A stretch of 31,920 nucleotides of DNA, taken from the IMG/VR virus record IMGVR_UViG_2534681762_000007; one strand, written 5' to 3'. A model generated the notes under the pieces. It was not told where the DNA came from, did no database searches, and was given only the letters and a program-made list of their open reading frames with translations. Of the stretch, positions 2,490 through 21,688 are shown piece by piece (position 1 is the first letter of the stretch; each line of letters opens with the position of its first letter). The position numbers and the translations under genes were made by a program. The DNA is from a virus (Duplodnaviria; Heunggongvirae; Uroviricota; Caudoviricetes).

Positions 2490-2623
2490 TTCTGATCCTC
2501 TTCAAAAGGCTACCTGTTACTGGTCGATTTAAGTCAACCTTTACCGCTGATTCGTGGAACAGATATTCTCTTCCATCCTTAACCGGAGGAGGGAATATCC
2601 TGCATTCGGGTAATGACTCCAAC

Positions 2624-3127
2624 TTATTGATAGTGTTTTATGTTCAGATAATGCCCGATGACTTTGTCATGCAGCTCCACCGATTTTGAGAACGACAGCG
2701 ACTTCCGTCCCAGCCGTGCCAGGTGCTGCCTCAGATTCAGGTTATGCCGCTCAATTCGCTGCGTATATCGCTTGCTGATTACGTGCAGCTTTCCCTTCAG
2801 GCGGGATTCATACAGCGGCCAGCCATCCGTCATCCATATCACCACGTCAAAGGGTGACAGCAGGCTCATAAGACGCCCCAGCGTCGCCATAGTGCGTTCA
2901 CCGAATACGTGCGCAACAACCGTCTTCCGGAGACTGTCATACGCGTAAAACAGCCAGCGCTGGCGCGATTTAGCCCCGACATAGCCCCACTGTTCGTCCA
3001 TTTCCGCGCAGACGATGACGTCACTGCCCGGCTGTATGCGCGAGGTTACCGACTGCGGCCTGAGTTTTTTAAGTGACGTAAAATCGTGTTGAGGCCAACG
3101 CCCATAATGCGGGCAGTTGCCCGGCAT
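2624..3127 (-). CDS. insB: IS1 InsB (transposase catalytic part, made as InsAB' by frameshift)
   Basis: 167-aa [67 protein letters not shown]... typical IS1 InsB. Confidence 0.93.
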
Positions 3128-3321
3128 CCAACGCCATTCATGGCCATATCAATGATTTTCTGGTGCGTACCGGGTTGAGAAGCGGTGTAAGTGAACTGCA
3201 GTTGCCATGTTTTACGGCAGTGAGAGCAGAGATAGCGCTGATGTCCGGCGGTGCTTTTGCCGTTACGCACCACCCCGTCAGTAGCTGAACAGGAGGGACA
3301 GCTGATAGAAACAGAAGCCAC
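3046..3321 (-). CDS. insA: IS1 InsA (transposition inhibitor / N-terminal part of transposase)
   Basis: 91-aa [46 protein letters not shown]... typical IS1 InsA with zinc finger. Confidence 0.93.
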
Positions 3322-3486
3322 TGGAGCACCTCAAAAACACCATCATACACTAAATCAGTAAGTTGACAGCATCACCCTGCATTCGCGCACCCATCGACGA
3401 ACTGTTTCAAGGCTTCTTGGGCGTCGCTGGCGAGCGTTCCACTCCTGAAGTGTCAAGTACATCGCAAAGTCTCCGCAATTACACGC

Positions 3487-3510
3487 AAGAAAAAACCGCC
3501 ATCAGGCGGC
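3487..3510 (-). terminator. Candidate intrinsic terminator for leftward transcripts upstream of xis
   Basis: Hairpin CCGCC-ATCA-GGCGG (3496..3509) flanked by an A-run on the plus strand (T-run on the minus strand); some Ts also follow on the plus strand. Confidence 0.4.
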
Positions 3511-3751
3511 TTGGTGTTCTTTCAGTTCTTCAATTCGAATATTGGTTACGTCTGCATGTGCTATCTGCGCCCACAGCATCCAGTGGTCATAGCAGTCGCT
3601 GATGTTCTCGGCTTCGATAACTCTGTTGAATGGTTCTCCATTCTATTCACCTGTGACTCGGAAGTGCATTTATCATCTCCATAAAAAAAACTCGCCGTAG
3701 CGAGTTCAGATATAATTTTCACCAAAGGCAGTAGTTGCTTTATGCTAAGAA

Positions 3752-5705: not shown

Positions 5706-6008
5706 CTACAGTTCAGCAATACGCTTACTTCCATCCGAGATAACACCTTCGTAATATTCACGCTGCTCGTTGAGTTTTGATTTTGCTGCTTCCAGTTCAA
5801 CGCGCAGCTTTCCTACCGTTAGCGCAATTTCCTCGTTCTCCTGGTCGCGGCGTTTGATGTATTGCTGGTTTCTTTCCCGCTCATCCAGCAGTTCCAGCAC
5901 AATCGATGGTGTTACCAATTCATGGAAAAGGTCTGCGTCAAATCCCCAGTCGTCATGCATTGCCTGCTCTGCCGCTTCACGCAGTGCCTGAGAGTTAATT
6001 TCGCTCAC
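5706..6008 (-). CDS. ea22: Ea22-like protein, N-terminal ~100 aa only (C-terminal part replaced by accessory cassette)
   Basis: MSEINSQALREAAEQAMHDDWGFDADLFHELVTPSIVLELLDERERNQQYIKRRDQENE... matches my memory of the lambda Ea22 N-terminus; ORF stops at 5706 where lambda-like DNA ends. Confidence 0.6.
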   Translation of the reverse strand: MSEINSQALREAAEQAMHDDWGFDADLFHELVTPSIVLELLDERERNQQYIKRRDQENEEIALTVGKLRVELEAAKSKLNEQREYYEGVISDGSKRIAEL

Positions 6009-6226
6009 TTCGAACCTCTCTGTTTACTGATAAGCTCCAGATCTTCCTGGCAACTTGCACAAGTCCGACAACCCTGAACGACCAGGCGTCTTCGTTCATC
6101 TATCGGATCGCCACACTCACAACAATGAGTGGCAGATATAGCCTGGTGGTTCAGGCGGCGCATTTTTATTGCTGTGTTGCGCTGTAATTCTTCAATTTCT
6201 GATGCTGAATCAATGATGTCTGCCAT
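6005..6226 (-). CDS. TraR/DksA-type C4 zinc-finger protein (lambda orf61 position)
   Basis: 73-aa ORF with CCECGDPIDERRRLVVQGCRTCASC motif; position between ea22 and exo as in lambda. Confidence 0.75.
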   Translation of the reverse strand: MADIIDSASEIEELQRNTAIKMRRLNHQAISATHCCECGDPIDERRRLVVQGCRTCASCQEDLELISKQRGSK

Positions 6227-6324
6227 CTTCCATTAATCCCTGAATTGTTGGTTAATACGCTTGAGGGTGAATGCGAATAATAAAAAAGGAGCCTGTAGCT
6301 CCCTGATGATTTTGCTTTTCATGT

Positions 6325-6540
6325 TCATCGTTCCTTAAAGACGCCGTTTAACATGCCGATTGCCAGGCTTAAATGAGTCGGTGTGAATCCCATCAGCGTT
6401 ACCGTTTCGCGGTGCTTCTTCAGTACGCTACGGCAAATGTCATCGACGTTTTTATCCGGAAACTGCTGTCTGGCTTTTTTGATTTCAGAATTAGCCTGAC
6501 GGGCAATGCTGCGAAGGGCGTTTTCCTGCTGAGGTGTCAT
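6325..6540 (-). CDS. Small early-left protein (lambda orf63 position)
   Basis: 71-aa ORF from internal ATG at 6540 (MTPQQENALRSIARQANSEIKKARQQF...); the track ORF extends further upstream in the same frame. Confidence 0.55.
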   Translation of the reverse strand: MTPQQENALRSIARQANSEIKKARQQFPDKNVDDICRSVLKKHRETVTLMGFTPTHLSLAIGMLNGVFKER

Positions 6541-6616
6541 TGAACAAGTCCCATGTCGGCAAGCATAAGCACACAGAATATGAAGCCCGCTGCCAGAAAA
6601 ATGCATTCAGTGGTTG

Positions 6617-6808
6617 TCATACCTGGTCTCTCTCATCTGCTTCTGCTTTCGCCACCATCATTTCCAGCTTTTGTGAAAGGGATGCGGCTAACGTGTGAAA
6701 TTCTTCGTCTGTTTCTACTGGTATTGGCACAAACCTGACTCCAATTTGAGCGAGGCTATGTGCCATCTCGATACTCGTTCTTAACTCAACGGGAGATGCT
6801 TTGTGCAT
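6617..6808 (-). CDS. Small early-left protein (lambda orf60a position)
   Basis: 63-aa ORF MHKASPVELRTSIEMAHSLAQIGVRFVPIPVETDEEF... immediately downstream of exo in transcription order. Confidence 0.55.
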   Translation of the reverse strand: MHKASPVELRTSIEMAHSLAQIGVRFVPIPVETDEEFHTLAASLSQKLEMMVAKAEADERDQV

Positions 6809-6959
6809 ACAGCCCCTCGTTTATTATTTATCTCCTCAGCCAGCCGCTGGGCTTTCAGTGGATTTTGGATAACAGAAAGGCCGGGAAATACCCAGCCTCG
6901 CTTTGTAACGGAGTAGACGAAAGTGATCGCGCCTACCCGGATATTATCGTGAGGATGCG

Positions 6960-7640
6960 TCATCGCCATTGCTCCCCAAATACAAAACCAATTTCAGCCA
7001 GTGCCTCGTCCATTTTTTCGATGAACTCCGGCACCATCTCGTCAAAACTCGCCATGTACTTTTCATTCCGCTCAATCACGACATAATGCAGGCCTTCACG
7101 CTTCATGCGCGGGTCATAGTTGGCAAAGTACCAGGCATCTTTTCGCGTCACCCACATGCTGTACTGCACCTGGGCCATGTAAGCCGATTTTATTGCCTCG
7201 AAACCACCGAGCCGGAATTTCATGAAATCCCGGGAGGTAAACGGGCATTTCAGTTCAAGGCCGTTGCCGTCACTGCATAAACCATCGGGAGAGCAGGCGG
7301 TGCGCATATTTTCGTCGCGATAGATGATCGGGGATTCAGTAATATTCACGCCGGAAGTGAATTCAAACAGGGTTCTGGCGTCGTTCTCGTACTGTTTTCC
7401 CCAGGCCAGCGCCTTAGCATTAACTTCCGGAGCCACACCGGTGCAAACCTCAGCCAGCAGGGTGTGGAAGTAGGACATTTTCATGTCAGGCCACTTCTTT
7501 CCTGAGCGGGGCTTTGCTATCACGTTGTGAACTTCTGAAGCGGTGATGACGCCGAGCCGTAATTTGTGCCATGCATCATCCCCCTGTTCGACAGCTCTCA
7601 CGTCGATCCCGGTACGCTGCAGGATAATGTCCGGTGTCAT
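6960..7640 (-). CDS. exo: Lambda exonuclease (Red-alpha)
   Basis: 226-aa [68 protein letters not shown]... matches lambda Exo. Confidence 0.97.
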
Positions 7641-8422
7641 GCTGCCACCTTCTGCTCAGTGGCTTTCTGTTTCAGGAATCCAAGAGCTTTCACTGCTTCG
7701 GCCTGTGTCAGTTCTGACGATGCGCGAATGTCGCGGCGAAATATCTGGGAACAGAGCGGCAATAAGTCGTCATCCCATGTTTTATCCAGGGCGATCAGCA
7801 GAGTGTTAATCTCCTGCATGGTTTCATCGTTAACCGGAGTGATGTCGCGTTCCGGCTGACGTTCTGCAGTGTATGCGGTATTTTCGACAATGCGCTCGGC
7901 TTCATCCTTGTCATAGATACCAGCAAATCCGAAGGCGAGACGGGCACACTGAATCATGGCTTTATGCCGTAACATCCGTTTGGGATGCGACTGCCACGGC
8001 CCCGTGATTTCTCTGCCTTCGCGGGTTTTGAATGGTTCGCGGCGGCATTCATCCATCCACTCGGTAACGCAGATCGGATGATTACGGTCCTTGCGGTAAA
8101 TCCGGCATGTACATGATTCATTGTCCTGCTCAAAGTCCATGCCATCAAACTGCTGGTTTTCATTGATGATACGGGACCAGCCATCAACGCCCACCACCGG
8201 AACGATGCCGTTCTGCTTATCAGGGAAGGCGTAAATTTCTTTCGTCCACGGATTAAGGCCGTACTGGTTGGCGACGATCAACAATGCGATGAACTGCGCA
8301 TCGCTGGCATCACCTTTAAATGCCGTCTGGCGAAGAGTGGTGATCAGTTCCTGTGGGTCGACAGAATCCATGCCGACACGTTCAGCCAGCTTCCCTGCCA
8401 GCGTTGCGAGTGCTGTACTCAT
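7637..8422 (-). CDS. bet: Lambda Bet (Red-beta single-strand annealing protein)
   Basis: 261-aa [69 protein letters not shown]... matches lambda Bet; overlaps exo start by 4 nt. Confidence 0.97.
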
Positions 8423-8427
8423 CCGTT

Positions 8428-8724
8428 TTATACCTCTGAATCAATATCAACCTGGTGGTGAGCAATGGTTTCAACCATGTACTGGATGTGTTCTGCCATG
8501 CGCTCCTGAAACTCAACATCGTCATCAAACGCACGGGTAATGGCTTTTTTGCTGGCCCCGTGGCGTTGCAAATGATCGATGCATAGCGATTCAAACAGGT
8601 GCTGGGGCAGGCCTTTTTCCATGTCGTCTGCCAGTTCTGCCTCTTTCTCTTCACGGGCGATCTGCTGGTAGTGACGCGCCCAGCTCTGAGCCTCAAGACG
8701 ATCCTGAATGTAATAAGCGTTCAT
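8428..8724 (-). CDS. gam: Lambda Gam (RecBCD inhibitor), 98-aa short form
   Basis: [60 protein letters not shown]... matches lambda GamS; the upstream GamL-type extension is not in frame here. Confidence 0.93.
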
Positions 8725-8799
8725 GGCTGACCTCCTGAAAATGGCTGTGAAAATATCGCCCGCGAAATGCCAGGCTGATTAGGAAAACAGGAAAGGGGA

Positions 8800-9090
8800 T
8801 TAGTGATTCAGGCCGTTACCGCGTCCGTCGAGAAAAACTTCCACGAGCAAATCACGGGTATAAGTGCGCTCGATGCCGCGATGCAGATAAAGCCGTCCGC
8901 GTAAATTAGCTGATGCAGTCCAGGTACCATCTTTGTGTTTGACCAGCATTCCTGGCATGACCGCGCCGCGATTAACGGTCTGCGTTCCGTAATGTTGATG
9001 AACCATAAAAACTCCTGCCCGTAAGCTGGGCTGCTGAACATATAAAGACTTCTGCGCGTATTCAGGCGGTGGATGGCCGCCGGTTGTCAT
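8800..9090 (-). CDS. Hypothetical 96-aa protein occupying the kil/cIII position upstream of gam
   Basis: [45 protein letters not shown]... with GAGG about 10 nt upstream of ATG at 9090; the 136-aa track ORF is the same frame from a TTG with no RBS. Confidence 0.5.
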
Positions 9091-9283
9091 AACTAAGCCG
9101 CCTCGTTGAAGCGACTGAGGTATGAAGTGTTGAGTTGATTTCAGCTGGTCACACCGACGTTCACGCGTCCGCTTCACCCCTCGCACTTCCCGTAGCCTGC
9201 TGAAATTCAAGCTGCGGATCTAAGCGGTCATCGCAACGGTGAATCAGGTGGTTGCCGTATCGTTGTGTTGTTGCGACATGGTG

Positions 9284-9327
9284 ATAATAGCTATTGCTAT
9301 TGGTGATATCAATACTTATAGCTATTG
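9284..9327 (-). promoter_or_regulatory. PL-like sigma70 promoter with flanking operator palindromes (OL)
   Basis: On minus strand: -35 TTGATA (9312..9307), 17-bp spacer, -10 TATTAT (9289..9284); palindrome AATAGCTATT (9286..9295) overlaps the -10, ATAGCTAT (9318..9325) lies just upstream of the -35; 9-mer TTGCTATTG (9294..9302) recurs in OR. Confidence 0.5.
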
Positions 9328-9453
9328 ATTGATGTGTTTTGATATTAACTGTTTGATAGCAAAAAGAATTAATTTTGTGACTTGCATCGCATAGCGATAA
9401 CTGAAGGGAGGTTGTGGTGGTTTTTCGAACGGTTTGTGTGATGAGGGGAGGGG

Positions 9454-9483
9454 ACAAAAGAAAACCCGGCACGGTGGCCGGGT
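9454..9483 (-). terminator. Intrinsic terminator ending the repressor-side transcript (tImm-like)
   Basis: Stem CCCGGC / GCCGGG (9465..9470 and 9477..9482) with minus-strand T-tract TTTTCTTTT; begins 5 nt after the stop of the 313-aa ORF. Confidence 0.6.
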
Positions 9484-9487
9484 ATCT

Positions 9488-10429
9488 TTATTCGAATGGA
9501 AGATCTATTTGCCTTTGAGGATTCAACTGTTTTTTTACATGCTCAATTTCGAATATGGTTTTTATGGCATCTCCGATCATATATTGAGTTACTTTTAAAT
9601 CTACAAGTAACATATCACCTTTAGAAAAATTTAAGGTGTTGTTATCAATATCGCTGATGAATTTCTGGTCTTTTATTTCAGCCAAAAAGCTACTGGCACC
9701 ATCAGAAAACCGCCACCGGCTTCCTTCATTGAAGGAAATATTTTTAATTTGAAGGGCTTTCTCTACTGTGTACTCTGAAATTATTGATTCTGCTGGTAGA
9801 TTGACTTTGAAATAATGTGCTTCTTGCTTGTTGATCGTCATGAATGTCAAACCATCATCGACAGTAGAGGCAAAGCTGTCAATGCCTTCCTGCTCCAATG
9901 GCTTACTTATAACTTCTTGTAATGAAGAGCGAAGTTTAATATTTTTATAAAGTTCAATAACGTTACTGTCGTAGATCTCGCTTTCGTCATCAACAAAGAC
10001 TTCGATGTTGCTATCAGGCAAATTGTGTAATTTTTTTATTTTCCTTGGGCCTATCCATTTTATCAGTTGAATTAGGCCTTTGCATATTTTTTCTTTAGAA
10101 CCAGGACAGAGTCCAATAAAAGCAATCAAATTCGCAGCGGCTGTTGCTGAATCGCCGGATAAAAAATCAACAGCCTGTTTGAACCAAGATGTAGATGAGG
10201 CAACCAGATCTATTCCAAATGAGCCAGCTTTAAATGATGCATTGACTTTTACAGAAACAACAGTCTTGTTTCCGTAGAGAGTTTTACCGGCTTCCTCTAA
10301 TGCATCTGATAGTGATAGAAGGGCAGGAGCAAGGTCTCGCACGTTCATTTCATGCGTTTCCAGTGCCGGACCGTCGTATACTATCCTGAACTTCATATCA
10401 TTGGTTTCCGAATTGTTGCCCGCATCCAT
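9488..10429 (-). CDS. Orphan 313-aa protein of unknown function in the rexAB slot (between cI and PL)
   Basis: Long AT-rich ORF; ATG at 10429 preceded by AGGTGA with 8-nt spacer (the track ORF starts 12 nt upstream at a GTG); no motif assignable by eye; terminator immediately downstream. Confidence 0.75.
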   Translation of the reverse strand: MDAGNNSETNDMKFRIVYDGPALETHEMNVRDLAPALLSLSDALEEAGKTLYGNKTVVSVKVNASFKAGSFGIDLVASSTSWFKQAVDFLSGDSATAAANLIAFIGLCPGSKEKICKGLIQLIKWIGPRKIKKLHNLPDSNIEVFVDDESEIYDSNVIELYKNIKLRSSLQEVISKPLEQEGIDSFASTVDDGLTFMTINKQEAHYFKVNLPAESIISEYTVEKALQIKNISFNEGSRWRFSDGASSFLAEIKDQKFISDIDNNTLNFSKGDMLLVDLKVTQYMIGDAIKTIFEIEHVKKQLNPQRQIDLPFE

Positions 10430-10502
10430 TATGGCATTCACCTGATCACATATACAGTTAATTTACGATATTGTCTTAAATCTTAAAACTTCTATTGTAT
10501 GG

Positions 10503-11195
10503 CTACCCATGCTTCCTATACGTCTGCGGCATGCTCCCAATAACCTTACCGAAGATGAACACCCGGTTCATCTCGTCTTTCTCGATCGGGTCCCACGGCG
10601 AGTAGCTCTTGTTATCAGAGATAACCAGCAGCTTATCCTTCATCATTTGCAGACGCTTTACATGGGCTGTGTCGTCGTACAGAAACGCATAGATACCATC
10701 ACCGTCGAAAGATTTAACAGTGATATCAACGAACAGAAGATCACCTGGTTCGATCGTTCCTGACATGCTGTCACCACGTACGTTAATGATGCGGATATTT
10801 TCTGCCTTCCTGCCATCGAACATGTGACGAGCATCGTCAAACGAGTACTCAACCGAGCGTAGAACTTCTACAAACTCACGGTTGATGACTCCCGGCCCGG
10901 CACTCACTTCTATATCAAGAACGTCAATCTTGAAGTATTTGGGATGGTTGGCAGTAGGCTTCCCTAATTGTTGACCGTCATTTCTCATCGGGCCTATGCC
11001 TGATGAGAGCCACTCTGTTCGAACACCCAATGCATTAGCTATTTCAACAATTTTTGTTGAGCCGCGCGCGTTGCCGCTTGTCAGTCTCCAGATTGTGGGT
11101 TGAGCTACGCCAGACGCCTTTGCAAGAGCGCCTTGAGACATTCCAGATTGTTCCATCGCTAGGTTTAAGCGATCAGCAAGAGTTTCTTTTTTCAT
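10503..11195 (-). CDS. CI-type prophage repressor (N-terminal HTH, C-terminal LexA/S24 autopeptidase domain)
   Basis: HTH region LSQGALAKASGVAQPTIWRL; Ala-Gly cleavage site in VSAGPGV; GDSM serine motif and downstream KRL lysine; divergent from a cro-like gene. Start taken at ATG 11195 (MKKETL); in-frame TTG at 11231 is the alternative. Confidence 0.85.
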   Translation of the reverse strand: MKKETLADRLNLAMEQSGMSQGALAKASGVAQPTIWRLTSGNARGSTKIVEIANALGVRTEWLSSGIGPMRNDGQQLGKPTANHPKYFKIDVLDIEVSAGPGVINREFVEVLRSVEYSFDDARHMFDGRKAENIRIINVRGDSMSGTIEPGDLLFVDITVKSFDGDGIYAFLYDDTAHVKRLQMMKDKLLVISDNKSYSPWDPIEKDEMNRVFIFGKVIGSMPQTYRKHG

Positions 11196-11305
11196 AAGTT
11201 TTAATTTATACGCTTGCGTATTGATGGTCAAAACACGTTTTGCTATTGTTATGATTAATACGCATTGCTATTATTTATTCGTTGCAATACCAATAGGAAT
11301 TGATA
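11196..11305. promoter_or_regulatory. OR region between divergent repressor and cro-like genes (PR/PRM and operators)
   Basis: Plus strand -35 TTGATG (11221..11226), 17-bp spacer, -10 TATTGT (11244..11249) facing the cro-like gene; inverted repeat ATACGC-TT-GCGTAT (11208..11221); TTGCTATTG at 11240..11248 is identical to a 9-mer in the PL region. Confidence 0.55.
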
Positions 11306-11533
11306 ATGACAAATCAAACCATTCAACTCGCAATCAGTATTACAGGTAGTCAAAAACGACTGGCAGATCTATGCGGTGTAGCCCAACCCACTGTTTGGCG
11401 TTGGCTACACGGTGGCGGAATTGATGCCCGCTATGTAATGAAAATTGTCTCAGCCACTGGTGGAAAGATTAAACCAGCAGATATTCGTCCCGACCTCGCA
11501 CCATTGTTTAACGCGAGTAACTCTGCCGCCTAA
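11306..11533 (+). CDS. Cro-like HTH regulator (YdaS/Cro family)
   Basis: 75-aa ORF MTNQTIQLAISITGSQKRLADLCGVAQPTVWRWLHGG...; AGGA Shine-Dalgarno; divergent from the repressor gene. Confidence 0.75.
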   Translation: MTNQTIQLAISITGSQKRLADLCGVAQPTVWRWLHGGGIDARYVMKIVSATGGKIKPADIRPDLAPLFNASNSAA

Positions 11534-11557
11534 ACTGCGGCGTTAACTGATAAGGCA

Positions 11558-12103
11558 ATGACTATGCAACCACTTACATACCAACAGACTAGCGGATTTA
11601 GCCCGATTGCGGTGATAAATCGTTCTCAAACAAAACAAGCTCCAGGCCACGAAAAAATCCGTGATGCCGTCCGTGCCTGGTCGGCTGCAGATAATCAGGA
11701 TGTTGTTGCCGCACTCATTGTGAATGAGTATCGGGAGCAGGGCGGCGGCACCATCGATTTCCCTGATGATGTCAGCCGTGCACGCCAGAAGCTGTTCCGC
11801 TTCCTCGATAACAAATTCGATTCTGAAAAATACCGAAATAACGTGCGTGAACTGACCCCGGCAATTCTGGCGGTACTACCGCTGGAATATCGCGGCCACC
11901 TGGTTGAGCAGGATAGCTTCATGGCTCGGCTGGCTGAAATGGAAAAGGAACTCAGTGAGGCAAAACAGGCTGTCATTCTCAACGCACCACGCCACCAGAA
12001 ACTGAAGGAGATGAGTGAAGGCATTGTGTCGATGTTTCGTGTGGACCCGGATCTGGCTGGTCCACTGATGGCGATGGTTACCACCATGTTGGGGGCAATA
12101 TGA
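11558..12103 (+). CDS. YdaT-family protein in the CII position
   Basis: 181-aa ORF with NEYREQGGG and LTPAILAVLPLEYR motifs that I recall from Rac prophage YdaT; immediately follows the cro-like gene. Confidence 0.6.
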   Translation: MTMQPLTYQQTSGFSPIAVINRSQTKQAPGHEKIRDAVRAWSAADNQDVVAALIVNEYREQGGGTIDFPDDVSRARQKLFRFLDNKFDSEKYRNNVRELTPAILAVLPLEYRGHLVEQDSFMARLAEMEKELSEAKQAVILNAPRHQKLKEMSEGIVSMFRVDPDLAGPLMAMVTTMLGAI

Positions 12104-12189
12104 CAGGCTCAGAAATGGCGAAAGCCGGTCTGCGGGAACAGAGCCGACTTTCAGGTGCAAATCGTAACGCACTCATTGCGGGAGGAATT

Positions 12190-13119
12190 ATGGCAAACAC
12201 TGCTGAGATATTCAATTTTCCAGTGCCGGATGTGGCACAAAAGGAGCCGCGCGTGGCAGATCTCGATGATGGTTATACGCGCATTGCAAATGAGTTGCTG
12301 GAAGCTGTGATGCTGGCCGGATTAACACAGCACCAGCTTCTGGTCTTCCTGGCTGTCATGCGCAAAACATATGGCTTTAATAAAAAACTGGATTGGGTGA
12401 GCAACGAGCAACTTTCCGAGTTGACCGGGATATTGCCGCACAAGTGTTCTGCTGCAAAAAGTGTTCTGGTAAAGCGTGGGATTTTTATTCAGAGCGGGCG
12501 GAATATCGGCATTAATAATGTGATCAGTGAATGGTCAACATTACCCGAATCAGGTAAGAAAAATAAAGTTTACCTGAAAGAGGTAAATTTACCTGAATCA
12601 GGTAAGAAAAGTTTACCCAAATCAGGTAAAGGCGTTTACCCGAATCAGGTAAACACAAAAGACAAACTAACAAAAGACAATATAAAACCTTTTTCGTCCG
12701 AGAATTCTGGCGAATCCTCTGACCAACCAGAAAACGATCTTCCTGTGGTGAAACCAGATGCTGCAATTCAGAGCGGCAGCAAGTGGGGGACAGCAGAAGA
12801 CCTGACCGCCGCAGAGTGGATGTTTGACATGGTGAAGACCATCGCGCCATCAGCCAGAAAACCGAATTTTGCAGGGTGGGCTAACGATATCCGCCTGATG
12901 CGTGAACGTGACGGACGTAACCACCGCGACATGTGCGTGCTGTTCCGCTGGGCATGCCAGGACAACTTCTGGTCCGGTAACGTGCTAAGTCCGGCCAAAC
13001 TCCGCGACAAGTGGACCCAACTCGAAATCAACCGTAACAAGCAACAGGCTGGCGTGACAGCCGGCAAACCAAAATTCGACCTGACGAACACTGACTGGAT
13101 TTACGGGGTGGAGCTATGA
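12190..13119 (+). CDS. O: Replication initiator O, hybrid: non-lambda N-terminal/iteron-binding half, lambda-like C-terminal half
   Basis: MANTAEIFNFPVP...VADLDDGYTRIANELLEA resembles lambda O N-terminus but diverges; C-terminus ...KWGTAEDLTAAEWMFDMVKTIAPSARKPNFAGWANDIRLMRERDG... matches lambda O; strong GGAGG before ATG 12190. In-frame ATG at 12100 is the alternative start. Confidence 0.88.
   Translation: MANTAEIFNFPVPDVAQKEPRVADLDDGYTRIANELLEAVMLAGLTQHQLLVFLAVMRKTYGFNKKLDWVSNEQLSELTGILPHKCSAAKSVLVKRGIFIQSGRNIGINNVISEWSTLPESGKKNKVYLKEVNLPESGKKSLPKSGKGVYPNQVNTKDKLTKDNIKPFSSENSGESSDQPENDLPVVKPDAAIQSGSKWGTAEDLTAAEWMFDMVKTIAPSARKPNFAGWANDIRLMRERDGRNHRDMCVLFRWACQDNFWSGNVLSPAKLRDKWTQLEINRNKQQAGVTAGKPKFDLTNTDWIYGVEL
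12541..12652. repeat. ori: Replication origin iterons inside O: five copies of a 17-bp palindromic repeat TTACC(C/T)GAATCAGGTAA
   Basis: Repeats at 12541, 12570, 12589, 12613, 12636, followed by an A-rich tract (12653..12690), the classic lambdoid ori layout; repeat sequence differs from lambda ATCCCTCAAAACGAGGGA. Confidence 0.85.
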
Positions 13120-13817
13120 AAAACATCGCCGCACAGATGGTTAACTTTGACCGTGAGCAGATGCGCCGGATCGCCAACAACATGCCGGAACAGTACGACG
13201 AAAAGCCGCAGGTACAGCAGGTAGCGCAGATCATCAACGGTGTGTTCAGCCAGTTACTGGCAACTTTCCCGGCGAGTCTGGCTAACCGTGACCAGAACGA
13301 ACTGAACGAAATCCGCCGCCAGTGGGTTCTGGCTTTCCGGGAAAACGGGATCACCACAATGGAACAGGTTAACGCAGGAATGCGCGTAGCCCGTCGGCAG
13401 AATCGACCATTTCTGCCATCACCCGGGCAGTTTGTTGCATGGTGCCGGGAAGAAGCATCCGTTATCGCCGGACTGCCAAACGTCAGCGAGCTGGTTGATA
13501 TGGTTTACGAGTATTGCCGGAAGCGAGGCCTGTATCCGGATGCGGAGTCTTATCCGTGGAAATCAAACGCGCACTACTGGCTGGTTACCAACCTGTATCA
13601 GAACATGCGGGCCAATGCGTTGACTGACGCGGAATTACGGCGCAAGGCTGCCGATGAACTGTCCTGTATGACCGCACGAATTAACCGTGGTGAGGCTATA
13701 CCTGAACCAGTAAAACAACTTCCTGTCATGGGCGGTAGACCTCTAAATCGTGCACAGGCTCTGGCGAAGATCGCAGAAATCAAAGCTAAGTTTGGGCTGA
13801 AAGGAGCAAGGGTATGA
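13116..13817 (+). CDS. P: Lambda replication protein P (DnaB loader)
   Basis: 233-aa ORF MKNIAAQMVNFDREQMRRIANNMPEQYDEKPQVQQVAQIINGVFSQLLATF... matches lambda P. Confidence 0.97.
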   Translation: MKNIAAQMVNFDREQMRRIANNMPEQYDEKPQVQQVAQIINGVFSQLLATFPASLANRDQNELNEIRRQWVLAFRENGITTMEQVNAGMRVARRQNRPFLPSPGQFVAWCREEASVIAGLPNVSELVDMVYEYCRKRGLYPDAESYPWKSNAHYWLVTNLYQNMRANALTDAELRRKAADELSCMTARINRGEAIPEPVKQLPVMGGRPLNRAQALAKIAEIKAKFGLKGARV

Positions 13818-14116
13818 CGGGCAAAGAGGCAATTATTCATTACCTGGGGACTCATAAGAAATTCTGTGCGCAGGACGTTGCCGCGGTAACAGGCGCAACG
13901 GTAACCAGCATAAATCAGGCTGCGGCTAAAATGGCACGGGCAGGTCTTCTGGCTATCGAAGGTAAGGTCTGGCGAACGGTGTATTACCGGTTTGCTACCA
14001 GAGAAGAACGGGAAGGAAAGGTGAGCACGAATCTGATTTTTAAGGAGTGTCGCCAGAGTGCCGCGATGAAACGGGTATTGAGGGTATATAAAAGAACATC
14101 AATGGGTACACAATGA
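13814..14116 (+). CDS. ren: Ren (Rex-exclusion escape protein)
   Basis: 100-aa ORF MTGKEAIIHYLGTHKKFCAQDVAAVTGATVTSINQAAAKMARAGLLAIEGKVWRTVYYRFATREEREGK... matches lambda Ren with a divergent C-terminus. Confidence 0.85.
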   Translation: MTGKEAIIHYLGTHKKFCAQDVAAVTGATVTSINQAAAKMARAGLLAIEGKVWRTVYYRFATREEREGKVSTNLIFKECRQSAAMKRVLRVYKRTSMGTQ

Positions 14117-14183: not shown

Positions 14184-14516
14184 ATGAACCCTTATATTTA
14201 TCTTGGTGGTGCAATACTTGCAGAGGTCATTGGTACAACCTTAATGAAGTTTTCAGAAGGTTTTACACGGTTATGGCCATCTGTTGGTACAATTATTTGT
14301 TATTGTGCATCATTCTGGTTATTAGCTCAGACGCTGGCTTATATTCCTACAGGGATTGCTTATGCTATCTGGTCAGGAGTCGGTATTGTCCTGATTAGCT
14401 TACTGTCATGGGGACTTTTCGGCCAACGGCTGGACCTGCCAGCCATTATAGGCATGATGTTGATTTGTGCCGGTGTGTTGGTTATTAATTTATTGTCACG
14501 AAGCACACCACATTAA
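14184..14516 (+). CDS. emrE: Small multidrug resistance efflux transporter EmrE
   Basis: 110-aa product MNPYIYLGGAILAEVIGTTLMKFSEGFTRLWPSVGTIICYCASFWLLAQTLAYIPTGIAYAIWSGVGIVLISLLSWG... matches E. coli EmrE with 4 TM helices; the track ORF starts 54 nt upstream. Confidence 0.95.
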   Translation: MNPYIYLGGAILAEVIGTTLMKFSEGFTRLWPSVGTIICYCASFWLLAQTLAYIPTGIAYAIWSGVGIVLISLLSWGLFGQRLDLPAIIGMMLICAGVLVINLLSRSTPH

Positions 14517-14546
14517 AAATAATTTGTTTCTAAACGACTAAAATAT

Positions 14547-14585
14547 GGAGGCTCTTATATTTATATGAGCCTCGTTTTATGCTTT
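14547..14585 (+). terminator. Intrinsic terminator after emrE
   Basis: Stem GGAGGCTC / GAGCCTC (14547..14573) followed by GTTTTATGCTTTTTG. Confidence 0.7.
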
Positions 14586-14772
14586 TTGTTAATGTCTTTA
14601 TTTTTTTATGTATTCTTTTGTGCTTTCAAGATTATGGCGTAAGAAAATTGCAATACGATTATTGTTGTATATTCAAGATAATGTGACCTTAATTGTCTTT
14701 TTAAATAAAAATTAAACAAAAATTATATCCCACCACTAAGGTTTATAAAAGCATACGTTAGCAGGTGTCACC

Positions 14773-16299
14773 ATGAAAAAAGCCATAGCATATATGCGAT
14801 TTTCATCACCAGGTCAGATGTCTGGCGACTCATTAAACCGACAGAGAAGACTTATTGCTGAATGGTTAAAGGTAAATAGTGATTATTATCTTGATACCAT
14901 AACATATGAAGATTTAGGATTAAGTGCATTCAAAGGAAAGCATGCACAATCAGGAGCTTTTTCGGAATTTTTAGATGCTATAGAGCATGGTTATATATTG
15001 CCAGGAACTACATTGTTAGTTGAAAGTCTGGACAGACTTTCAAGAGAAAAAGTCGGTGAAGCGATTGAACGTCTGAAATTGATTTTGAATCACGGTATTG
15101 ATGTTATAACTCTTTGCGACAATACAGTCTATAATATTGACTCTTTGAATGAGCCATATTCATTAATAAAAGCCATACTTATAGCACAAAGGGCAAATGA
15201 AGAAAGCGAGATAAAGTCAAGTCGGGTTAAATTATCATGGAAGAAAAAACGGCAGGATGCACTGGAATCAGGTACGATTATGACGGCGTCTTGTCCGAGA
15301 TGGCTCTCCTTAGATGACAAAAGAACGGCTTTTGTTCCAGACCCCGACAGGGTGAAAACTATTGAGCTAATTTTTAAACTCAGGATGGAAAGGCGCTCAT
15401 TGAATGCAATAGCCAAGTATTTAAATGATCATGCTGTAAAGAATTTCTCAGGAAAAGAAAGTGCATGGGGACCTTCTGTAATTGAAAAATTATTAGCGAA
15501 TAAAGCTCTGATAGGTATATGCGTACCTTCATATCGTGCAAGAGGTAAAGGAATAAGTGAAATCGCTGGCTATTATCCCAGAGTCATATCAGATGATTTG
15601 TTTTACGCTGTACAGGAAATTCGGTTGGCACCTTTTGGTATTAGCAATAGTAGCAAAAATCCTATGTTGATAAATCTACTTCGAACAGTTATGAAGTGCG
15701 AGGCTTGTGGTAATACCATGATTGTTCATGCGGTATCTGGAAGTTTGCATGGCTATTATGTTTGTCCGATGAGAAGACTGCATCGATGTGACAGGCCATC
15801 AATAAAGAGAGATTTGGTTGATTATAATATCATTAATGAGTTGCTTTTTAATTGTAGTAAAATCCAACCAGTTGAAAACAAGAAAGATGCTAATGAAACT
15901 TTAGAGTTGAAAATTATTGAGCTCCAGATGAAAATTAATAATTTAATTGCTGCATTATCTGTTGCGCCTGAAGTTACCGCTATAGCAGAAAAAATCAGAG
16001 TATTAGATAAGGAATTACGAAGGGCTTCTGTATCATTAAAAACTTTGAAGAGTAAAGCGGTGAGTTCACTTGGTGATTTTCATGCTATTGACTTAACCAG
16101 TAAAAATGGGCGAGAGCTATGTCGTACACTTGCCTATAAAACATTCGAAAAAATCATAATCAATACAGATAATAAAACCTGTGATATCTATTTTATGAAT
16201 GGCATTGTTTTTAAACACTATCCTTTAATGAAAACAATATCCGCCCAGCAGGCGATAAGTACTCTCAAATATATGGTTGATGGTGAGGTTTATTTTTGA
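14773..16299 (+). CDS. ybcK: Large serine recombinase (YbcK-type, DLP12-like)
   Basis: 508-aa AT-rich ORF MKKAIAYMRFSSPGQMSGDSLNRQRRLIAEWL... with resolvase-type N-terminal catalytic Ser region and Cys-rich recombinase domain (CEACGNTM...CPMRRLHRC); matches my memory of K-12 YbcK. Confidence 0.9.
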   Translation: MKKAIAYMRFSSPGQMSGDSLNRQRRLIAEWLKVNSDYYLDTITYEDLGLSAFKGKHAQSGAFSEFLDAIEHGYILPGTTLLVESLDRLSREKVGEAIERLKLILNHGIDVITLCDNTVYNIDSLNEPYSLIKAILIAQRANEESEIKSSRVKLSWKKKRQDALESGTIMTASCPRWLSLDDKRTAFVPDPDRVKTIELIFKLRMERRSLNAIAKYLNDHAVKNFSGKESAWGPSVIEKLLANKALIGICVPSYRARGKGISEIAGYYPRVISDDLFYAVQEIRLAPFGISNSSKNPMLINLLRTVMKCEACGNTMIVHAVSGSLHGYYVCPMRRLHRCDRPSIKRDLVDYNIINELLFNCSKIQPVENKKDANETLELKIIELQMKINNLIAALSVAPEVTAIAEKIRVLDKELRRASVSLKTLKSKAVSSLGDFHAIDLTSKNGRELCRTLAYKTFEKIIINTDNKTCDIYFMNGIVFKHYPLMKTISAQQAISTLKYMVDGEVYF

Positions 16300-17552: not shown

Positions 17553-17641
17553 AACCTTTGATTTGCGATAATCAACTCGCCATAATCATGTCATCGGAGC
17601 CTGAACAACTCCGGTGACTTCTGCGCTAAACGGGGACGTTT

Positions 17642-19007: not shown

Positions 19008-19144
19008 TGTTTGAGTTTTATATGGCAGAACGTCTTCGCCACCGCTGGGGGCGTCTGCGCTTATATCGTTTCCCCGGTTCTGTTTTGACCGATTACCGAA
19101 TACTGAAGAATTACGCCAAAACCCTGACAGGAGCAGGAGTATGA
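19004..19144 (+). CDS. ylcG: YlcG small protein
   Basis: 46-aa [49 protein letters not shown] overlapping the rusA stop. Confidence 0.7.
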
Positions 19145-19229
19145 AGTCAGAGATAACAATCAACTAATACTGTTTCGTTGATTTTTGCTTGTAATTGGCG
19201 TTCTGGTCTGATTTTTGTGGAGTAAGTTG

Positions 19230-19613
19230 ATGCGTGATATTCAGATGGTTCTTGAGCGTTGGGGAGCGTGGGCGGCTAATAATCATGAAGATGTGACCTG
19301 GTCGTCCATTGCCGCCGGTTTTAAGGGATTAATTACTTCAAAAGTAAAATCTCGCCCGCAATGTTGTGACGATGACGCGATGATCATTTGCGGGTGCATG
19401 GCCCGTCTGAAAAAGAACAACAGCGATTTGCACGATTTATTAGTAGATTATTATGTAGTCGGTATGACATTCATGTCACTGGCAGGTAAGCATTGCTGCT
19501 CTGATGGTTATATCGGGAAAAGGTTACAGAAGGCTGAGGGCATAATTGAAGGGATGTTAATGGCATTAGATATCCGGTTAGAGATGGATATCGTTGTTAA
19601 TAACTCTAATTAA
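19230..19613 (+). CDS. quuD: Late-gene antiterminator Q homolog (QuuD-type)
   Basis: 127-aa product [62 protein letters not shown]...; GGAG about 8 nt upstream of ATG 19230. Confidence 0.85.
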
Positions 19614-19800
19614 TACGCCAATTATTTACTAAAAGTTATTAAAAATGGGGCGTTGAAACGCCCCCAAAAATAAAGGGTAATATATAACAGAAGGTTTGTA
19701 TAGTTAGAAGCAAGGTTGTGCTTCTAAAGGAAGTGGCTTGAGGGAGCCACTTATATGTTGGGGAGGCAAAGCCTCCCACAACATATCTTTTAGTAATCAA
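19614..19800 (+). promoter_or_regulatory. Putative late promoter / qut / tR'-like region downstream of Q
   Basis: Position equivalent to lambda PR'-tR'; extended palindrome ATATGTTGGGGAGGC-AAA-GCCTCCCACAACATAT (19754..19787) followed by CTTTT on the plus strand; promoter hexamers not crisp. Confidence 0.35.
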
Positions 19801-19801
19801 A
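19638..19801 (-). ncRNA. ipeX: Possible IpeX-like sRNA / nmpC 3' UTR ending at an intrinsic terminator
   Basis: Minus-strand terminator GGGGCG-TTTCAA-CGCCCC plus ATTTTTAAT (19638..19664) lies about 140 nt past the nmpC stop; I recall IpeX as a ~167-nt RNA at the nmpC 3' end in DLP12. Confidence 0.3.
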
Positions 19802-20884: not shown

Positions 20885-21472
20885 CGTGAGCCCTTTTTTT
20901 TGAACTATTATTAAAAAATGATGTCACTGCGCGATAAATATTCATCTAATCAATGTGATTATTTCAAGATGTAAGTTTTAGTTTCTCATTTAATTTGTGA
21001 AGTAGATCTCTATTTTTATCTGAACTTTTTCTATCGAAACCTATTTATGGCTCTTATTTGAACAAAAATAAACCTATTAGCTAATTTATATTAATGGCTG
21101 TTATTTATGGGGGTTCTATAATTCGGCAGTTTAATTTAAATCAACTAAAAATAACGTTTGAAATTATTTATTGGTTATTTGTTGAGGTTTTCTTATGTAT
21201 TTGTGGTGGAGTTTTGAACACTCGGTAGCATTCTCATAAATATCATTCAGTGGTTTACGTACGTAAAAAATTGGTTATGCTGTTAAGAGTGGTTACTTCG
21301 TCACACAGCTTAAACCCGCCGTCGAGCTGGTTTTTCCATTTTTTGAGTCTCGATATTAGCTGATAACTCAATACCTGAGTTATTCACTGACTCCGAGTCT
21401 GTTACGTTTCTGCTTTTTTGCGATACGTTGTATTCCCTCAATTTACACCCGCTTTGTCTGCGAGGTGGGGTT

Positions 21473-21688
21473 ATGAAATCCATGGATAAGTTAACAACGG
21501 GTGTCGCCTATGGCACCTCAGCAGGTAGTGCCGGTTACTGGTTTTTACAGCTGCTCGATAAAGTCACGCCCTCACAGTGGGCAGCAATAGGTGTGCTGGG
21601 TAGCCTGGTATTTGGCCTGCTGACGTACCTGACAAACCTTTATTTCAAGATTAAAGAAGATAAGCGCAAGGCTGCGAGAGGTGAATAA
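21473..21688 (+). CDS. essD: Holin (EssD-type)
   Basis: 71-aa product [71 protein letters not shown]; GAGGTGGGG RBS; first gene of the lysis cassette. Confidence 0.9.

Follow-up and report, generated by a model that had tools for sequence, protein, structure and literature searches.

HK022 and HK639 are lambdoid phages without an N gene. In both, PL is directly followed by a non-coding RNA, annotated or proven, and N is replaced by the cis-acting put RNA. In ST104, one of the P22-like Salmonella phages ST104 and SE1, PL is followed by a canonical nutL (boxA CGCTCTTTAA, boxB GCGCTGACAAAGCGC) and by gp24, an analogue of N, and the CII (C1) is of the lambda type. The Rac prophage of E. coli K-12 encodes members of the Pfam families YdaS and YdaT, with a KilR-family inhibitor in its left operon; no N is annotated, and a small RNA, KilS, is annotated with a terminator upstream of kilR. 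YdaT has been described as a CII equivalent (PMC9986795, PMC8630535), and leaderless cI-type mRNAs have been documented for lambda and CP-933P (PMC8630535).

We analysed a 31,920-nt stretch of Caudoviricetes DNA (the window) from a lambda-like E. coli prophage. Using blastn, window 5709-8806 was aligned with lambda 30096-33193 (97.6%) and window 12653-14089 with lambda 39119-40555 (95.2%), and no match to lambda was found between 8806 and 12653. The left breakpoint falls within the final 7 nt of kil, whose stop codon in lambda (33187) aligns with window 8800, and the right one is at the first base past lambda iteron 4 (lambda 39101-39118). The replication gene O (12190..13119, plus strand, Pfam Phage_rep_O) starts at 12190 or at 12100, both choices being seen in annotations. 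Its N-terminal half and five iterons (TTACCYGAATCAGGTAA, window 12541-12657) are non-lambda, and its C-terminal half is lambda from 12653 onward. These alignments agree with the initial annotation, which had proposed that a whole non-lambda immunity region, including the N-terminus of O, was swapped in at classical lambdoid junctions. The interval (8806-12653) contains a KilR-family inhibitor, OL/PL, a rex-slot gene, an S24 CI, counterparts of Cro (YdaS type) and CII (YdaT type), and the N-terminus of O. It is a complete module for lambdoid immunity and early control, its repressor belongs to the lineage of HK022, HK639, and ST104, and it was recombined into lambda-like flanks at the kil end and in mid-O past the iterons.

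Judged by sequence similarity, this N-less module is a common immunity type that was already known and is not new. It is ~97-100% identical to that of 4A7 and 4C10 (Bievrevirus), two phages that can be induced and form plaques, and close to that of Perceval (E. coli LF82). These three phages and 1W, 3W, PhiR68_2, and PhiR70_1 share ~97% nucleotide identity with the window over kil-gam-bet-exo, OL/PL, the leader, cI, cro, the ydaT-like gene, O, P, ren, emrE, and ybcK, and the CI of 4A7 is 100% identical to that of the window. DNA damage induces 4A7 and 4C10, which go on to form plaques, and in them this module sustains an entire inducible lytic cycle. Unlike the 4A7 group, the window prophage is at att-lambda, with a lambda-type int and an xis split by IS1, and its rex slot holds a PDC-S42-type gene where 4A7 has an ASCH-domain gene and a 353-aa gene. 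In the literature, we found no study of the regulation of this module.

The switch genes were identified much as first read from the sequence. The CI-type repressor (10503..11195, minus strand) has an HTH domain (HTH_3) and a self-cleaving peptidase domain (Pfam Peptidase_S24, 1.5e-18). The OR region (11203..11299) contains operators with TTGCTATTG half-sites, a predicted PRM-like promoter (11231..11203, minus strand), and a predicted PR promoter (11246..11274, plus strand). The predicted PRM start is at the cI ATG, suggesting a leaderless cI mRNA. To the right are a YdaS-family Cro analogue (11306..11533, plus strand; Pfam YdaS_toxin, 1e-14) and, after a 24-nt gap, a 181-aa YdaT-family CII analogue (11558..12103, plus strand; Pfam YdaT_toxin, 7.5e-30; phrog_163) that abuts O. 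The rex-slot gene (9488..10441, minus strand, 317 aa; phrog_3243) has no Pfam match, and its PADLOC match to PDC-S42 (E 3.4e-86) makes it a candidate anti-phage defence gene. The PL promoter (9312..9284, minus strand; TTGATA-17-TATTAT, 10/12 matches in the promoter scan) lies in a region (9284..9327) with the OL operators, whose repeats AATAGCTATTGCTATTG at 9286-9302 and 9311-9327 carry the half-site CAATAGC/TTGCTATTG in common with OR. Sequence and relatives show a switch in which a CI cleavable in the SOS response represses PL and PR through shared operators. Its PRM transcript, probably leaderless, also carries the candidate defence gene and stops at a terminator at 9464-9483, and the YdaS-type and YdaT-type proteins fill the roles of Cro and CII.

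The first gene of the PL operon encodes a KilR-family cell-division inhibitor of 68 aa (8800..9006, minus strand; phrog_294, E 1.3e-37), and its stop codon is inside the lambda-like DNA. It replaces the 96-aa unknown gene of the initial annotation: the ribosome-binding site AGGAG is 5 nt ahead of the ATG at 9006, and the 68-aa gene is intact in 60/60 relatives, with a diversity of 0.002, 0.007, and 0.041 at codon positions 1, 2, and 3. In-frame upstream extensions were rejected because they are broken in 10/60 relatives from ATG 9090 and in 22/60 from TTG 9210.

Between PL and kilR is an untranslated leader of ~270 nt (9007..9277, minus strand), in which some relatives have frameshifting indels or a stop codon. 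It occupies the slot of nutL and N in lambda, and the region downstream of PL, where only missing signals had been reported, contains conserved elements. The 5'-proximal hairpin GUCGCAAC...GUUGCGAU (9233..9277, minus strand), compared by eye, appears to be an expanded form of a family hairpin CGACAAC...GUUGUC, in which two pairs are changed on both sides and pairing is retained. The core (9127..9243, minus strand) is specific to the E. coli group, where it is present in 2210/5426 complete E. coli genomes (~41%), at >=90% identity wherever found. Its diversity is 0.017 vs 0.041 at kil/gam codon position 3, and it gives no thermodynamic folding signal (z -0.1 to -0.8). Next is a junction element (9045..9126, minus strand; fold z-score -2.83). 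Its first hairpin spans the Shine-Dalgarno sequence and the start codon (AUG, 9090) of a short upstream reading frame (MTTGGHPP...), and the hairpin GGCGG-CCAUCCA-CCGCC follows. By blastn, this element is common to phi80, HK225, HK639, and Enterobacter phages, where it comes after N or a terminator. The leader is joined to other operator sets at PL +1 (9276) or at 9243. Across immunity types it begins exactly at PL +1, as expected of a cis-acting transcript signal.

Directly 5' of the kil Shine-Dalgarno sequence is a compact two-helix motif, GUUC-AGC-A-GCCC-A-GCU-UAC-GGGC-A (9016..9039, minus strand), with a ACGCGCAG box upstream of it (9052..9059, minus strand; family consensus AACGCGCAGUAGG). 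It is a copy of the family motif GUUCCGCCAGCCUGGCGACAAGGGCA that has diverged, with both helices preserved through compensatory changes. It is invariant in 60/60 relatives, and diversity at 9044-9006 is 0.008. The best window match of model R2 (9106..9016, minus strand; 12.9 bits, E 0.25) is not significant alone. Sequence comparison places the 270-nt leader in a large, unannotated leader family, defined in this analysis and not in Rfam, that includes Gifsy-1/2. Gifsy-1/2 and mEp237 share the leader type and have no annotated N, and the order PL, leader, kilR is also found in Citrobacter, Kluyvera, Enterobacter, and Silvania.

The search for N gave the same answer as the first reading. With lambda N, phi80 N, P22-type gp24, and Nun as tblastn queries, all matches had E > 0.1; Pfam and PHROGs profile searches gave no N-family protein, and in the complete 4A7 genome only a Q-type antiterminator is annotated. 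No boxA was found in the module or nearby, no nut site (boxA/boxB) in the module, and no match in Rfam. A put covariance model that recovered HK022 putL and putR and HK639 putL at 67-95 bits reached at best 7.3 bits in the window, at the wrong place. Neither N nor nut has thus appeared, and the module has turned out to be a sequenced type carried by inducible phages. The late antiterminator Q is retained, as had been noted (19215..19613, plus strand; phrog_79, E 4e-53), and is of the QuuD type by the quuD annotation in E. coli A34.

The initial annotation had proposed that early leftward expression may be N-independent and limited by two intrinsic terminators. Both hairpins are real (9464-9483 and 3493-3512). 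The one at 9464-9483 (minus strand; a 7-bp G+C-rich stem followed by TTTTCTTTT), which is conserved in 4A7, is where the cI/rex-slot transcript stops; since it lies upstream of PL, PL transcripts cannot be limited by it. Three leftward terminators had been missed (6899..6877, 6304..6286, and 3707..3688). The hairpin at 6877..6899 (minus strand, 9-bp stem), just past exo, corresponds to lambda ~31264-31286 by the offset of the blastn alignment, which we take to be the position of the known site tL3 (Luk and Szybalski). This tL3 homologue is the first strong barrier to PL transcripts, and the terminator scan gave a second one at 6286..6304 (minus strand). Both are retained between PL and xis in the functional phage 4A7. 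In pKD46, tL3 is reportedly carried after exo.

N-independent early transcription, so proposed but with one of the two terminators wrongly assigned, is most likely, and we favour it as the mechanism. The best explanation of the locus, which we hold with moderate confidence, is a module of the HK022/HK639/ST104 lineage with an SOS switch, N-independent early transcription, and an expression-tuning leader. Early transcription would need no dedicated antiterminator of the N type. Rightward, all genes from PR to Q point the same way and form a single block, whose first genes are tightly spaced. On the plus strand from PR to quuD, an intrinsic-terminator scan, which is blind to Rho-dependent terminators, gave only weak 5-bp hairpins; without a strong intrinsic terminator in this block, Q would be reachable without N. 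Leftward, PL transcripts with the 270-nt leader would express kilR-gam-bet-exo and then be attenuated at the tL3 homologue and later terminators, and therefore the distal genes (accessory genes, xis, int) would depend on partial read-through. It counts against this picture that functional relatives excise and form plaques although they retain two good intrinsic terminators before xis; read-through may be efficient, or xis may have an unrecognised promoter. The lower diversity of the leader than of synonymous sites, and its start exactly at PL +1 across immunity types, also count against it. For the leader, the most probable role is to tune kil and early-left expression by way of RNA stability, translation, or Rho protection, and a role as antiterminator is judged less likely.

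It is possible, though unlikely, that the leader, or the two-helix motif with the ACGCGCAG box, is a cis-acting RNA that makes RNA polymerase termination-resistant. It would be an N-free analogue of HK022 put or nut, acting alone or with host Nus factors, and would let transcription pass tL3 and later terminators and reach xis and int. The leader is immediately downstream of PL, the position of nutL/putL; homology begins at PL +1 in phages with different operators, and in at least 120 viral contigs the motif family directly follows PL-like promoters, which belong to many immunity types. The invariance of the window motif and its compensatory changes, the terminators retained between PL and xis in functional relatives, and the RNA-only antitermination of HK022 and HK639, which are of the same CI lineage, point the same way, as does a type B sister leader that is a pseudoknotted RNA (covariation 0.261 vs 0.133 in shuffles, 0/500 as high). 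However, the leader has no similarity to put, its E. coli-specific core has neither excess folding stability nor measurable covariation, the model R2 match does not stand alone, and no second copy was detected downstream of PR with model R2. Moreover, a related GUUAGCCAGCGGCG segment, seen by eye, is also in the PL leaders of phi80 and HK225 (N) and HK639 (put), suggesting a general leader function rather than antitermination.

That the leader is mostly functionless debris of a deleted or replaced N/nutL segment, spread by prophage-module recombination, is improbable. The confinement of the core at >=90% identity to E. coli is consistent with recent spread, the leader tolerates 1-, 2-, and 5-nt indels, the core gives no structural signal, and other genera use leaders of 80-230 nt without the core and junction element. 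But diversity is 2.4-fold below that of codon position 3 of the flanking genes, no polymorphism was seen in 60 aligned sequences at 9140-9171 or, except for sites 9211, 9229, and 9238, at 9210-9239, and the kil-adjacent motif is conserved across genera. We consider it very unlikely that an unrecognised protein antiterminator, whether its gene lies within the module or in another part of the prophage, acts at the leader motif; candidates would be an Arg-rich peptide from TTG 9210, the long YdaT-type protein (181 aa vs 140 aa in Rac), or a small early protein. An Arg-rich reading does exist, contrary to the initial annotation: RLREVRGVKRTRERR, in ORF 8800-9210, is the most Arg-rich N-terminal stretch of the window, its RTRERRCDQ resembles RRRERRAEKQ of lambda N, the ORF is exactly at the N position, and its first ~27 codons are preserved in 56/60 relatives. 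It is not a conserved gene and was rejected as N, because a stop, a 5-nt insertion, or 1-nt deletions interrupt it in 22/60 relatives, the induced phage PhiR68_2 among them. Furthermore, its TTG start lacks a Shine-Dalgarno sequence, its Arg codons coincide with a CG-rich hairpin, it has no N-like NusA-binding or RNAP-binding part, and the only homologues found are near-identical copies in E. coli. Against the YdaT-type protein as candidate, YdaT has been documented to be an analogue of CII that binds DNA (PMC9986795).

By sequence, the closest relatives of the module are ST104, HK639, and HK022, and not Rac. ST104/SE1 has the closest repressor/operator type outside E. coli (CI 85%, Cro 69%), with an OL region homologous to that of the window up to the -35 element. 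Because ST104 pairs the same CI type with nutL and gp24, N modules appear exchangeable and dispensable. HK639 resembles the window in CI (45%), Cro (57%), and a 181-aa YdaT-type 'cII' (52%), and HK022 in its CI lineage (40%); unlike these phages, the window has no intergenic slot behind cro or the cII analogue in which a putR-like or 'M3-like' RNA could lie. The earlier label 'Rac-type' is true at the level of Pfam families only. Identities to Rac are 31-36% (YdaS 31%, YdaT 35%, KilR 36%) without nucleotide similarity, Rac has RacR as its repressor where the window has an S24 CI and nothing RacR-like, and it uses RecET where the window has lambda Red. The leader has the same operon place as lambda nutL/N, and by eye its GCCC...GGGC motif beside the ACGCGCAG box is arranged like lambda boxA/boxB. 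In contrast to lambda, there is no N protein or boxA consensus, and the loop of the motif is not a GNRA-like pentaloop and in the leader family pairs with upstream bases. Type B sister leaders start, by eye, like lambda/P22 PL leaders (AUCAGCAGGACGC...CCACC..GGUG). Like the window, Gifsy-1, Gifsy-2, mEp237, and many Enterobacteriaceae prophages have a 5' hairpin starting CAUCG..., and family leaders have an A(A/C)GCGCAG box and a GUUC two-helix motif before the first gene, which is often kilR as in the window. The helices are AGC/GCU and GCCC/GGGC in the window vs CGCC/GGCG and GCCU/GGGC in the Gifsy-1/2/mEp237 family, and the window leader has ~190 nt (core and junction element) inserted between the 5' hairpin and the box.

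Blastn against lambda placed a non-lambda module for immunity and early control between 8806 and 12653, an interval with zero alignment to lambda, and the initial annotation had correctly delimited it by breakpoints on the kil/gam side and inside O. To the left, 5709-8806 corresponds to lambda 30096-33193 (97.6% identity), and to the right, 12653-14089 corresponds to lambda 39119-40555 (95.2% identity). The left breakpoint is within the final 7 nt of kil, and the lambda kil stop (33187, window 8800) is also the stop of the unrelated kil gene of the window. The right breakpoint is the first base 3' of lambda iteron 4 (lambda 39101-39118). Since the window has five copies of its own non-lambda iteron, TTACCYGAATCAGGTAA, at 12541-12657 and lambda DNA from 12653, the iteron-binding half of O was swapped together with the iterons; the P-interacting half remained lambda. 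This exchange point is a classical lambdoid junction, and the module is an ordinary lambdoid modular exchange already present in public phage genomes. It is ~97% identical in phages 4A7 and 4C10 (Bievrevirus), Perceval, 1W, 3W, PhiR68_2 and PhiR70_1, and the CI of 4A7 is 100% identical to that of the window. DNA-damaging bacteriocins induce 4A7 and 4C10, and both phages are plaque-forming (bioRxiv 10.64898/2026.05.26.727859).

The window is a prophage at att-lambda, where its homology to lambda begins at the attP core (blastn), and it adjoins a ybhC-like host gene. The right arm is DLP12-like (14184-16299 and 19215-22643), with emrE, the ybcK recombinase, ybcN, ninE, rusA, quuD and essD-rrrD-rzpD, and an ompC/nmpC-type porin on the opposite strand. 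Thus, the window looks like an intact relative of the cryptic prophage DLP12 with lambda int, att and Red. A 768-bp IS1 element (2608-3375, InsA and InsB confirmed by Pfam) with a target duplication of 9 bp (lambda 28992-29000) interrupts the lambda-type xis, and therefore the prophage is probably excision-defective.

The module carries a CI/Cro switch of the SOS type, together with OL and OR, and shows the features of lambdoid immunity: cI and cro are divergent, OR and the distant OL/PL have a common operator type, and CI has an HTH and a self-cleaving S24 domain (Pfam). Half-site repeats of CAATAGC/TTGCTATTG are found at both 9286-9327 (OL/PL) and 11232-11299 (OR). The promoter scan placed PL (TTGATA-17-TATTAT, leftward) at 9312..9284 with the OL operators, and PR is at 11246..11274 (rightward). 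The predicted start of a PRM-like promoter (TTGACC-17-TAAATT, 11231..11203, -) is at or adjoining the cI ATG (11195), so that the cI mRNA may be leaderless like those of lambda and CP-933P (PMC8630535). Rightward from PR are a YdaS-type Cro analogue (Pfam YdaS_toxin, 1e-14), then after 24 nt a YdaT-type CII analogue of 181 aa (Pfam YdaT_toxin, 7.5e-30), and O. Leftward from OR are PRM, CI, the rex-slot gene, a terminator, OL/PL, the leader, a KilR-family gene and lambda gam. For O, some annotations give a start at 12100, which overlaps the ydaT-type gene, and others one at 12190, preceded by GGGAGGA; the latter would leave an 86-nt intergenic stretch (12104-12189, +) with the hairpin CGGUCUG-CGGGAA-CAGAGCCG. 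The palindrome TTGATTN6AATCAA, reported for CP-933P YdaT, has a perfect copy in the nin region (17558-17575, +), where it overlaps a promoter-like TTGATT-17-CATAAT, and a one-mismatch copy spans the cro start (11300-11317); none was found in the leader.

The rex slot is the only part where the module differs in these phage relatives, and in 4A7 it holds an ASCH-domain gene and a 353-aa gene instead. The rex-slot gene of the window (9488-10441, -, 317 aa) has no Pfam match. Its residues 15-316 match positions 3-300 of the 302 in PADLOC model PDLC05015 (E 3.4e-86), and this single-protein match places it in the candidate defence system PDC-S42. A candidate defence gene would here be under the control of the repressor operon.

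The KilR-family gene (8800-9006, leftward, 68 aa) follows the leader. It matches phrog_294 over the full length (E 1.3e-37) and Rac KilR with 36% identity (E 5e-11), and has no similarity to lambda Kil. With ~70 aa, a profile match and a place early in the left operon, it has the marks of a KilR/Kil FtsZ inhibitor. The gene is intact in all 60 aligned relatives, and its diversity (0.002, 0.007 and 0.041 at codon positions 1, 2 and 3) is a coding signature. What was first taken as an unknown 96-aa gene is this kil gene with its start moved to an in-frame ATG further upstream (9090), an extension that is broken in 10 of the 60. In Rac of E. coli K-12, the RefSeq sRNA KilS (7406-7503 of compared sequence L091) ends in an intrinsic terminator just 5' of kilR and is another non-coding element preceding a KilR-family gene. 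The leader had no blastn match to KilS or the Rac region.

No N, nut site or put was found in the module, and the initial annotation was right about the first two. Tblastn searches with lambda N, phi80 N, gp24 of ST104 (P22-type) and Nun all gave E > 0.1, and the early proteins of HK225 and HK639 gave nothing below E 0.1. An HMM search for N-family proteins, which had been suggested at the outset, found nothing N-like among Pfam and PHROGs profiles. The annotations of 4A7 and of E. coli A34, which has an identical leader, list a Q-type protein as the only antiterminator, and a Q homolog, quuD, is indeed retained in the window. The boxA sequence GCTCTTTAA (at most one mismatch) has zero matches within 8.8-12.7 kb, and five in the whole window versus 7.7 expected by chance. 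A CGCTCTTTA-like boxA with a boxB hairpin (GNRA-like pentaloop) downstream of it, which a nut system requires in both early transcripts, was not found there, and an Rfam scan of 8000-13500 returned chance matches only. ST104, with a near-identical repressor and OL, served as the positive control and has a textbook boxA/boxB and gp24 directly after PL. HK022-type put RNA acts via the beta' zinc-binding domain of RNA polymerase, without a protein factor, and is blocked by rpoC Y75N. As put RNA serves the closest characterised relatives, we built a covariance model (R1) from HK022 putL, HK022 putR and HK639 putL, put being a two-stem RNA of ~70 nt (GAACGGC...GUCGG...GGAUGA...CAAUG) downstream of PL (and PR). 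R1 scored 67-95 bits on these three RNAs, and its best match in the window reached 7.3 bits (E 3.5, 19016-19065), with neither strand nor position fitting put.

An Arg-rich ORF exactly at the N place (8800-9210) had been missed. Among the ORFs of the window it has the most Arg-rich N-terminal segment, RLREVRGVKRTRERRCDQ, close to RRRERRAEKQ of lambda N. The Arg-rich reading RLREVRGVKRTRERRCDQLK (9139-9210, -) is similar to the lambda N RNA-binding motif, and 32 nt underneath (9140-9171) are invariant in the 60 relatives. We do not think that this ORF is a gene. It would start at a TTG (9210) without a ribosome-binding site. Taken as an N-Kil fusion or N remnant, it is broken in 22 of the 60, some with a stop codon (among them the induced phage PhiR68_2), others with a 5-nt insertion or 1-nt deletions. 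The Arg codons coincide with a CG-rich hairpin, and the excess of codon-position-3 variation in 9127-9210 rests on two polymorphic sites. In a phage collection and 5.8 billion proteins, it had no relatives beyond near-identical E. coli copies.

The strong leftward terminator at 9483..9464 ends the cI/rex-slot transcript. It is upstream of PL and thus cannot limit PL transcription, as the initial annotation had proposed for a hairpin at 9454..9483; the second terminator named there, near 3487..3510, does lie downstream (3512..3493). The genes proximal to PL are kilR-gam-bet-exo, with leftward intrinsic terminators beyond exo. The one just past exo (6899..6877) is the homolog of lambda tL3, and this one and those at 6304..6286, 3707..3688 and 3512..3493 are all strong. 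The functional phage 4A7 retains the homologs of 6899..6877 and 6304..6286 between PL and xis. On the + strand, no strong intrinsic terminator was found between PR and quuD. Lambda has tR1 in the gap between cro and cII, whereas the window lacks such a gap.

The start of the PL transcript is a conserved, untranslated leader of ~270 nt (9277-9007, -) at the place of lambda nutL and N. Its 5' hairpin (9277-9233) is followed by a core (9243-9127) that was found in E. coli only, always with at least 90% identity, in 2210 of 5426 complete genomes (~41%). Diversity in the core is 0.017, versus 0.041 at synonymous-like sites. Since every copy is at least 90% identical, covariation in the core is unmeasurable. 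The core has no excess folding stability by its z-scores (-0.1 to -0.8), and a common G-to-A variant disrupts its candidate stem CCGCUU/AAGCGG without compensation. The composition of the leader as a Rho site is not distinctive (C/G ratio 1.3-1.7 in parts). The next part, a junction element (9126-9045), is common to phi80, HK225, HK639 and Enterobacter phages, where it comes after N or a terminator. It folds well (z -2.8), with the beginning of a short upstream ORF inside its hairpin. Besides the window copy (-), it was located in compared sequences L006 (3001-3058), L005 (3501-3600) and L089 (7830-7876), and it occurs in phages whose early-left regions are otherwise unrelated. The hairpin is variable in sequence and conserved in shape, and masks the start of an MTTGGHPP... 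ORF (21 aa in phi80 and HK225). A second junction hairpin, GGCGGCCAUCCACCGCC, is conserved, and the HK639 annotation calls it a terminator. Directly 5' of the kil ribosome-binding site, the leader has a ACGCGCAG box and a 24-nt motif (9039-9016).

In other genera, kil homologs have a PL-like promoter directly 5' of kilR, leaders of 80-230 nt and no N. These leaders have GUUCCGCCAGCCUGGCGACAAGGGCA in common, which a pattern search found in at least 120 viral contigs, always just after a PL-like promoter, with many operator types and a varying first gene downstream. Gifsy-1, Gifsy-2 and mEp237 also carry the leader motif. As we defined it, this Gifsy-type family has an A(A/C)GCGCAG box and, downstream of the box and a few nt from the first gene, GUUC with two short helices (S1 and S2). 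Most of the motif is fixed by the retrieval pattern, and therefore its invariance is no evidence in itself. S1 is CGCC/GGCG or CGCU/GGCG, and S2 is GCCU/GGGC, GCCC/GGGC, or GCC/GGC with both partners lost together. These variants fit two interlocking helices, and in the probable window copy (AGC/GCU and GCCC/GGGC) both can still form, given compensatory changes. A covariance model of sister PL leaders (R2) had its best window match at 9106..9016 (-), exactly at the motif, but the match was weak (E 0.25). By eye only, the PL leaders of two phages with N (phi80 and HK225) and of one with put (HK639) show a similar segment. In several genera (L095, L098, L099 and L101, ~2870-3000), a further conserved segment of ~95 nt lies between the motif and kilR. 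It pairs at long range (GCUUCGCGGUGGUG...CACCACCAGCGAAG), has an inner hairpin whose changes are compensated, and resembles a structured kil 5' UTR.

One branch of the sister leaders, type B, inserts an RNA of ~85 nt with three helices, two of which cross as a well-supported pseudoknot. In the type B alignment (A3), 97.5% of cells are standard pairs and seven pairs change on both sides. The covariation score was 0.261 versus 0.133 for shuffles, none of 500 shuffles was as high, and slid controls reached at most 0.096. The type B RNA is directly after PL-like promoters in many Enterobacteriaceae prophages (L101 2660-2790; also L103, L105, L106, L121, L125, L126, L164 and others), and its 5' part looks, by eye, like the beginning of the PL transcripts in lambda and P22. 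Rfam contains neither this RNA nor the leader motif (the sister leader of L101 was scanned), and neither matched put.

N-independent early-left expression, as first proposed, is the reading that we grade most likely, and we put the full scheme at slightly better than an even chance. Transcription from PR would arrive at Q unimpeded, without N, and transcription from PL would be attenuated past exo. The distal left genes would then rely on partial read-through or on unrecognised promoters, and the leader would serve the control of kil and early-left expression. A different view is that the leader, or the motif within it, acts in cis as a signal in place of N. The two terminators that functional relatives tolerate between PL and xis would then make sense, as would the start of the homology at PL +1; with no excess folding stability in the core and a weak R2 match, we consider this view possible but unlikely. 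That the conserved RNA at the PL start represents a novel kind of cis-acting signal, for N-independent processive antitermination or against Rho, is more doubtful again. The parts of such a signal, proposed just as tentatively, would be the 5' hairpin, the ACGCGCAG box and the two-helix pseudoknot-like motif (9016-9039), and in sister prophages the ~85-nt pseudoknotted RNA. A leader that is a functionless remnant, set beside the low diversity of the core and the conservation across genera of the motif next to kil, seems improbable. An unrecognised protein factor, beside the broken Arg-rich ORF, is the least probable of all.

If the leader is such a signal, it would take the nutL place in very many Enterobacteriaceae prophages, among them those of ~41% of complete E. 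coli genomes and Gifsy-1/2. The module is among the commonest early controls of E. coli prophages, and it supports induction, excision and plaque formation without N, nut or put, despite keeping lambda tL3 and another terminator between PL and xis. We found no study in the literature on how these phages read through, or manage without doing so. The leader family, with a covariation-supported pseudoknot in one branch, is a concrete and testable candidate. The N-less early-left control, with the unannotated leader RNA family to which the window leader probably belongs, is the point worth following.

Among known systems, Rac is distant. Its YdaS and YdaT have 31% and 35% identity to those of the window, and blastp found no match between its short RacR-type repressor, without a peptidase domain, and the window CI, which has S24. 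Therefore, the earlier label of Rac-type immunity is correct at the level of the YdaS and YdaT Pfam families only. HK022 (CI 40%) and HK639 (CI 45%, Cro 57%, CII analogue 52%) are closer, and the nearest relatives at the protein level are ST104/SE1 (CI 85%, Cro 69%). As for whether the module is a known immunity type with characterised regulation, it is not a characterised one, but it is a known sequence type, common to sequenced phages such as 4A7 and to thousands of E. coli genomes.
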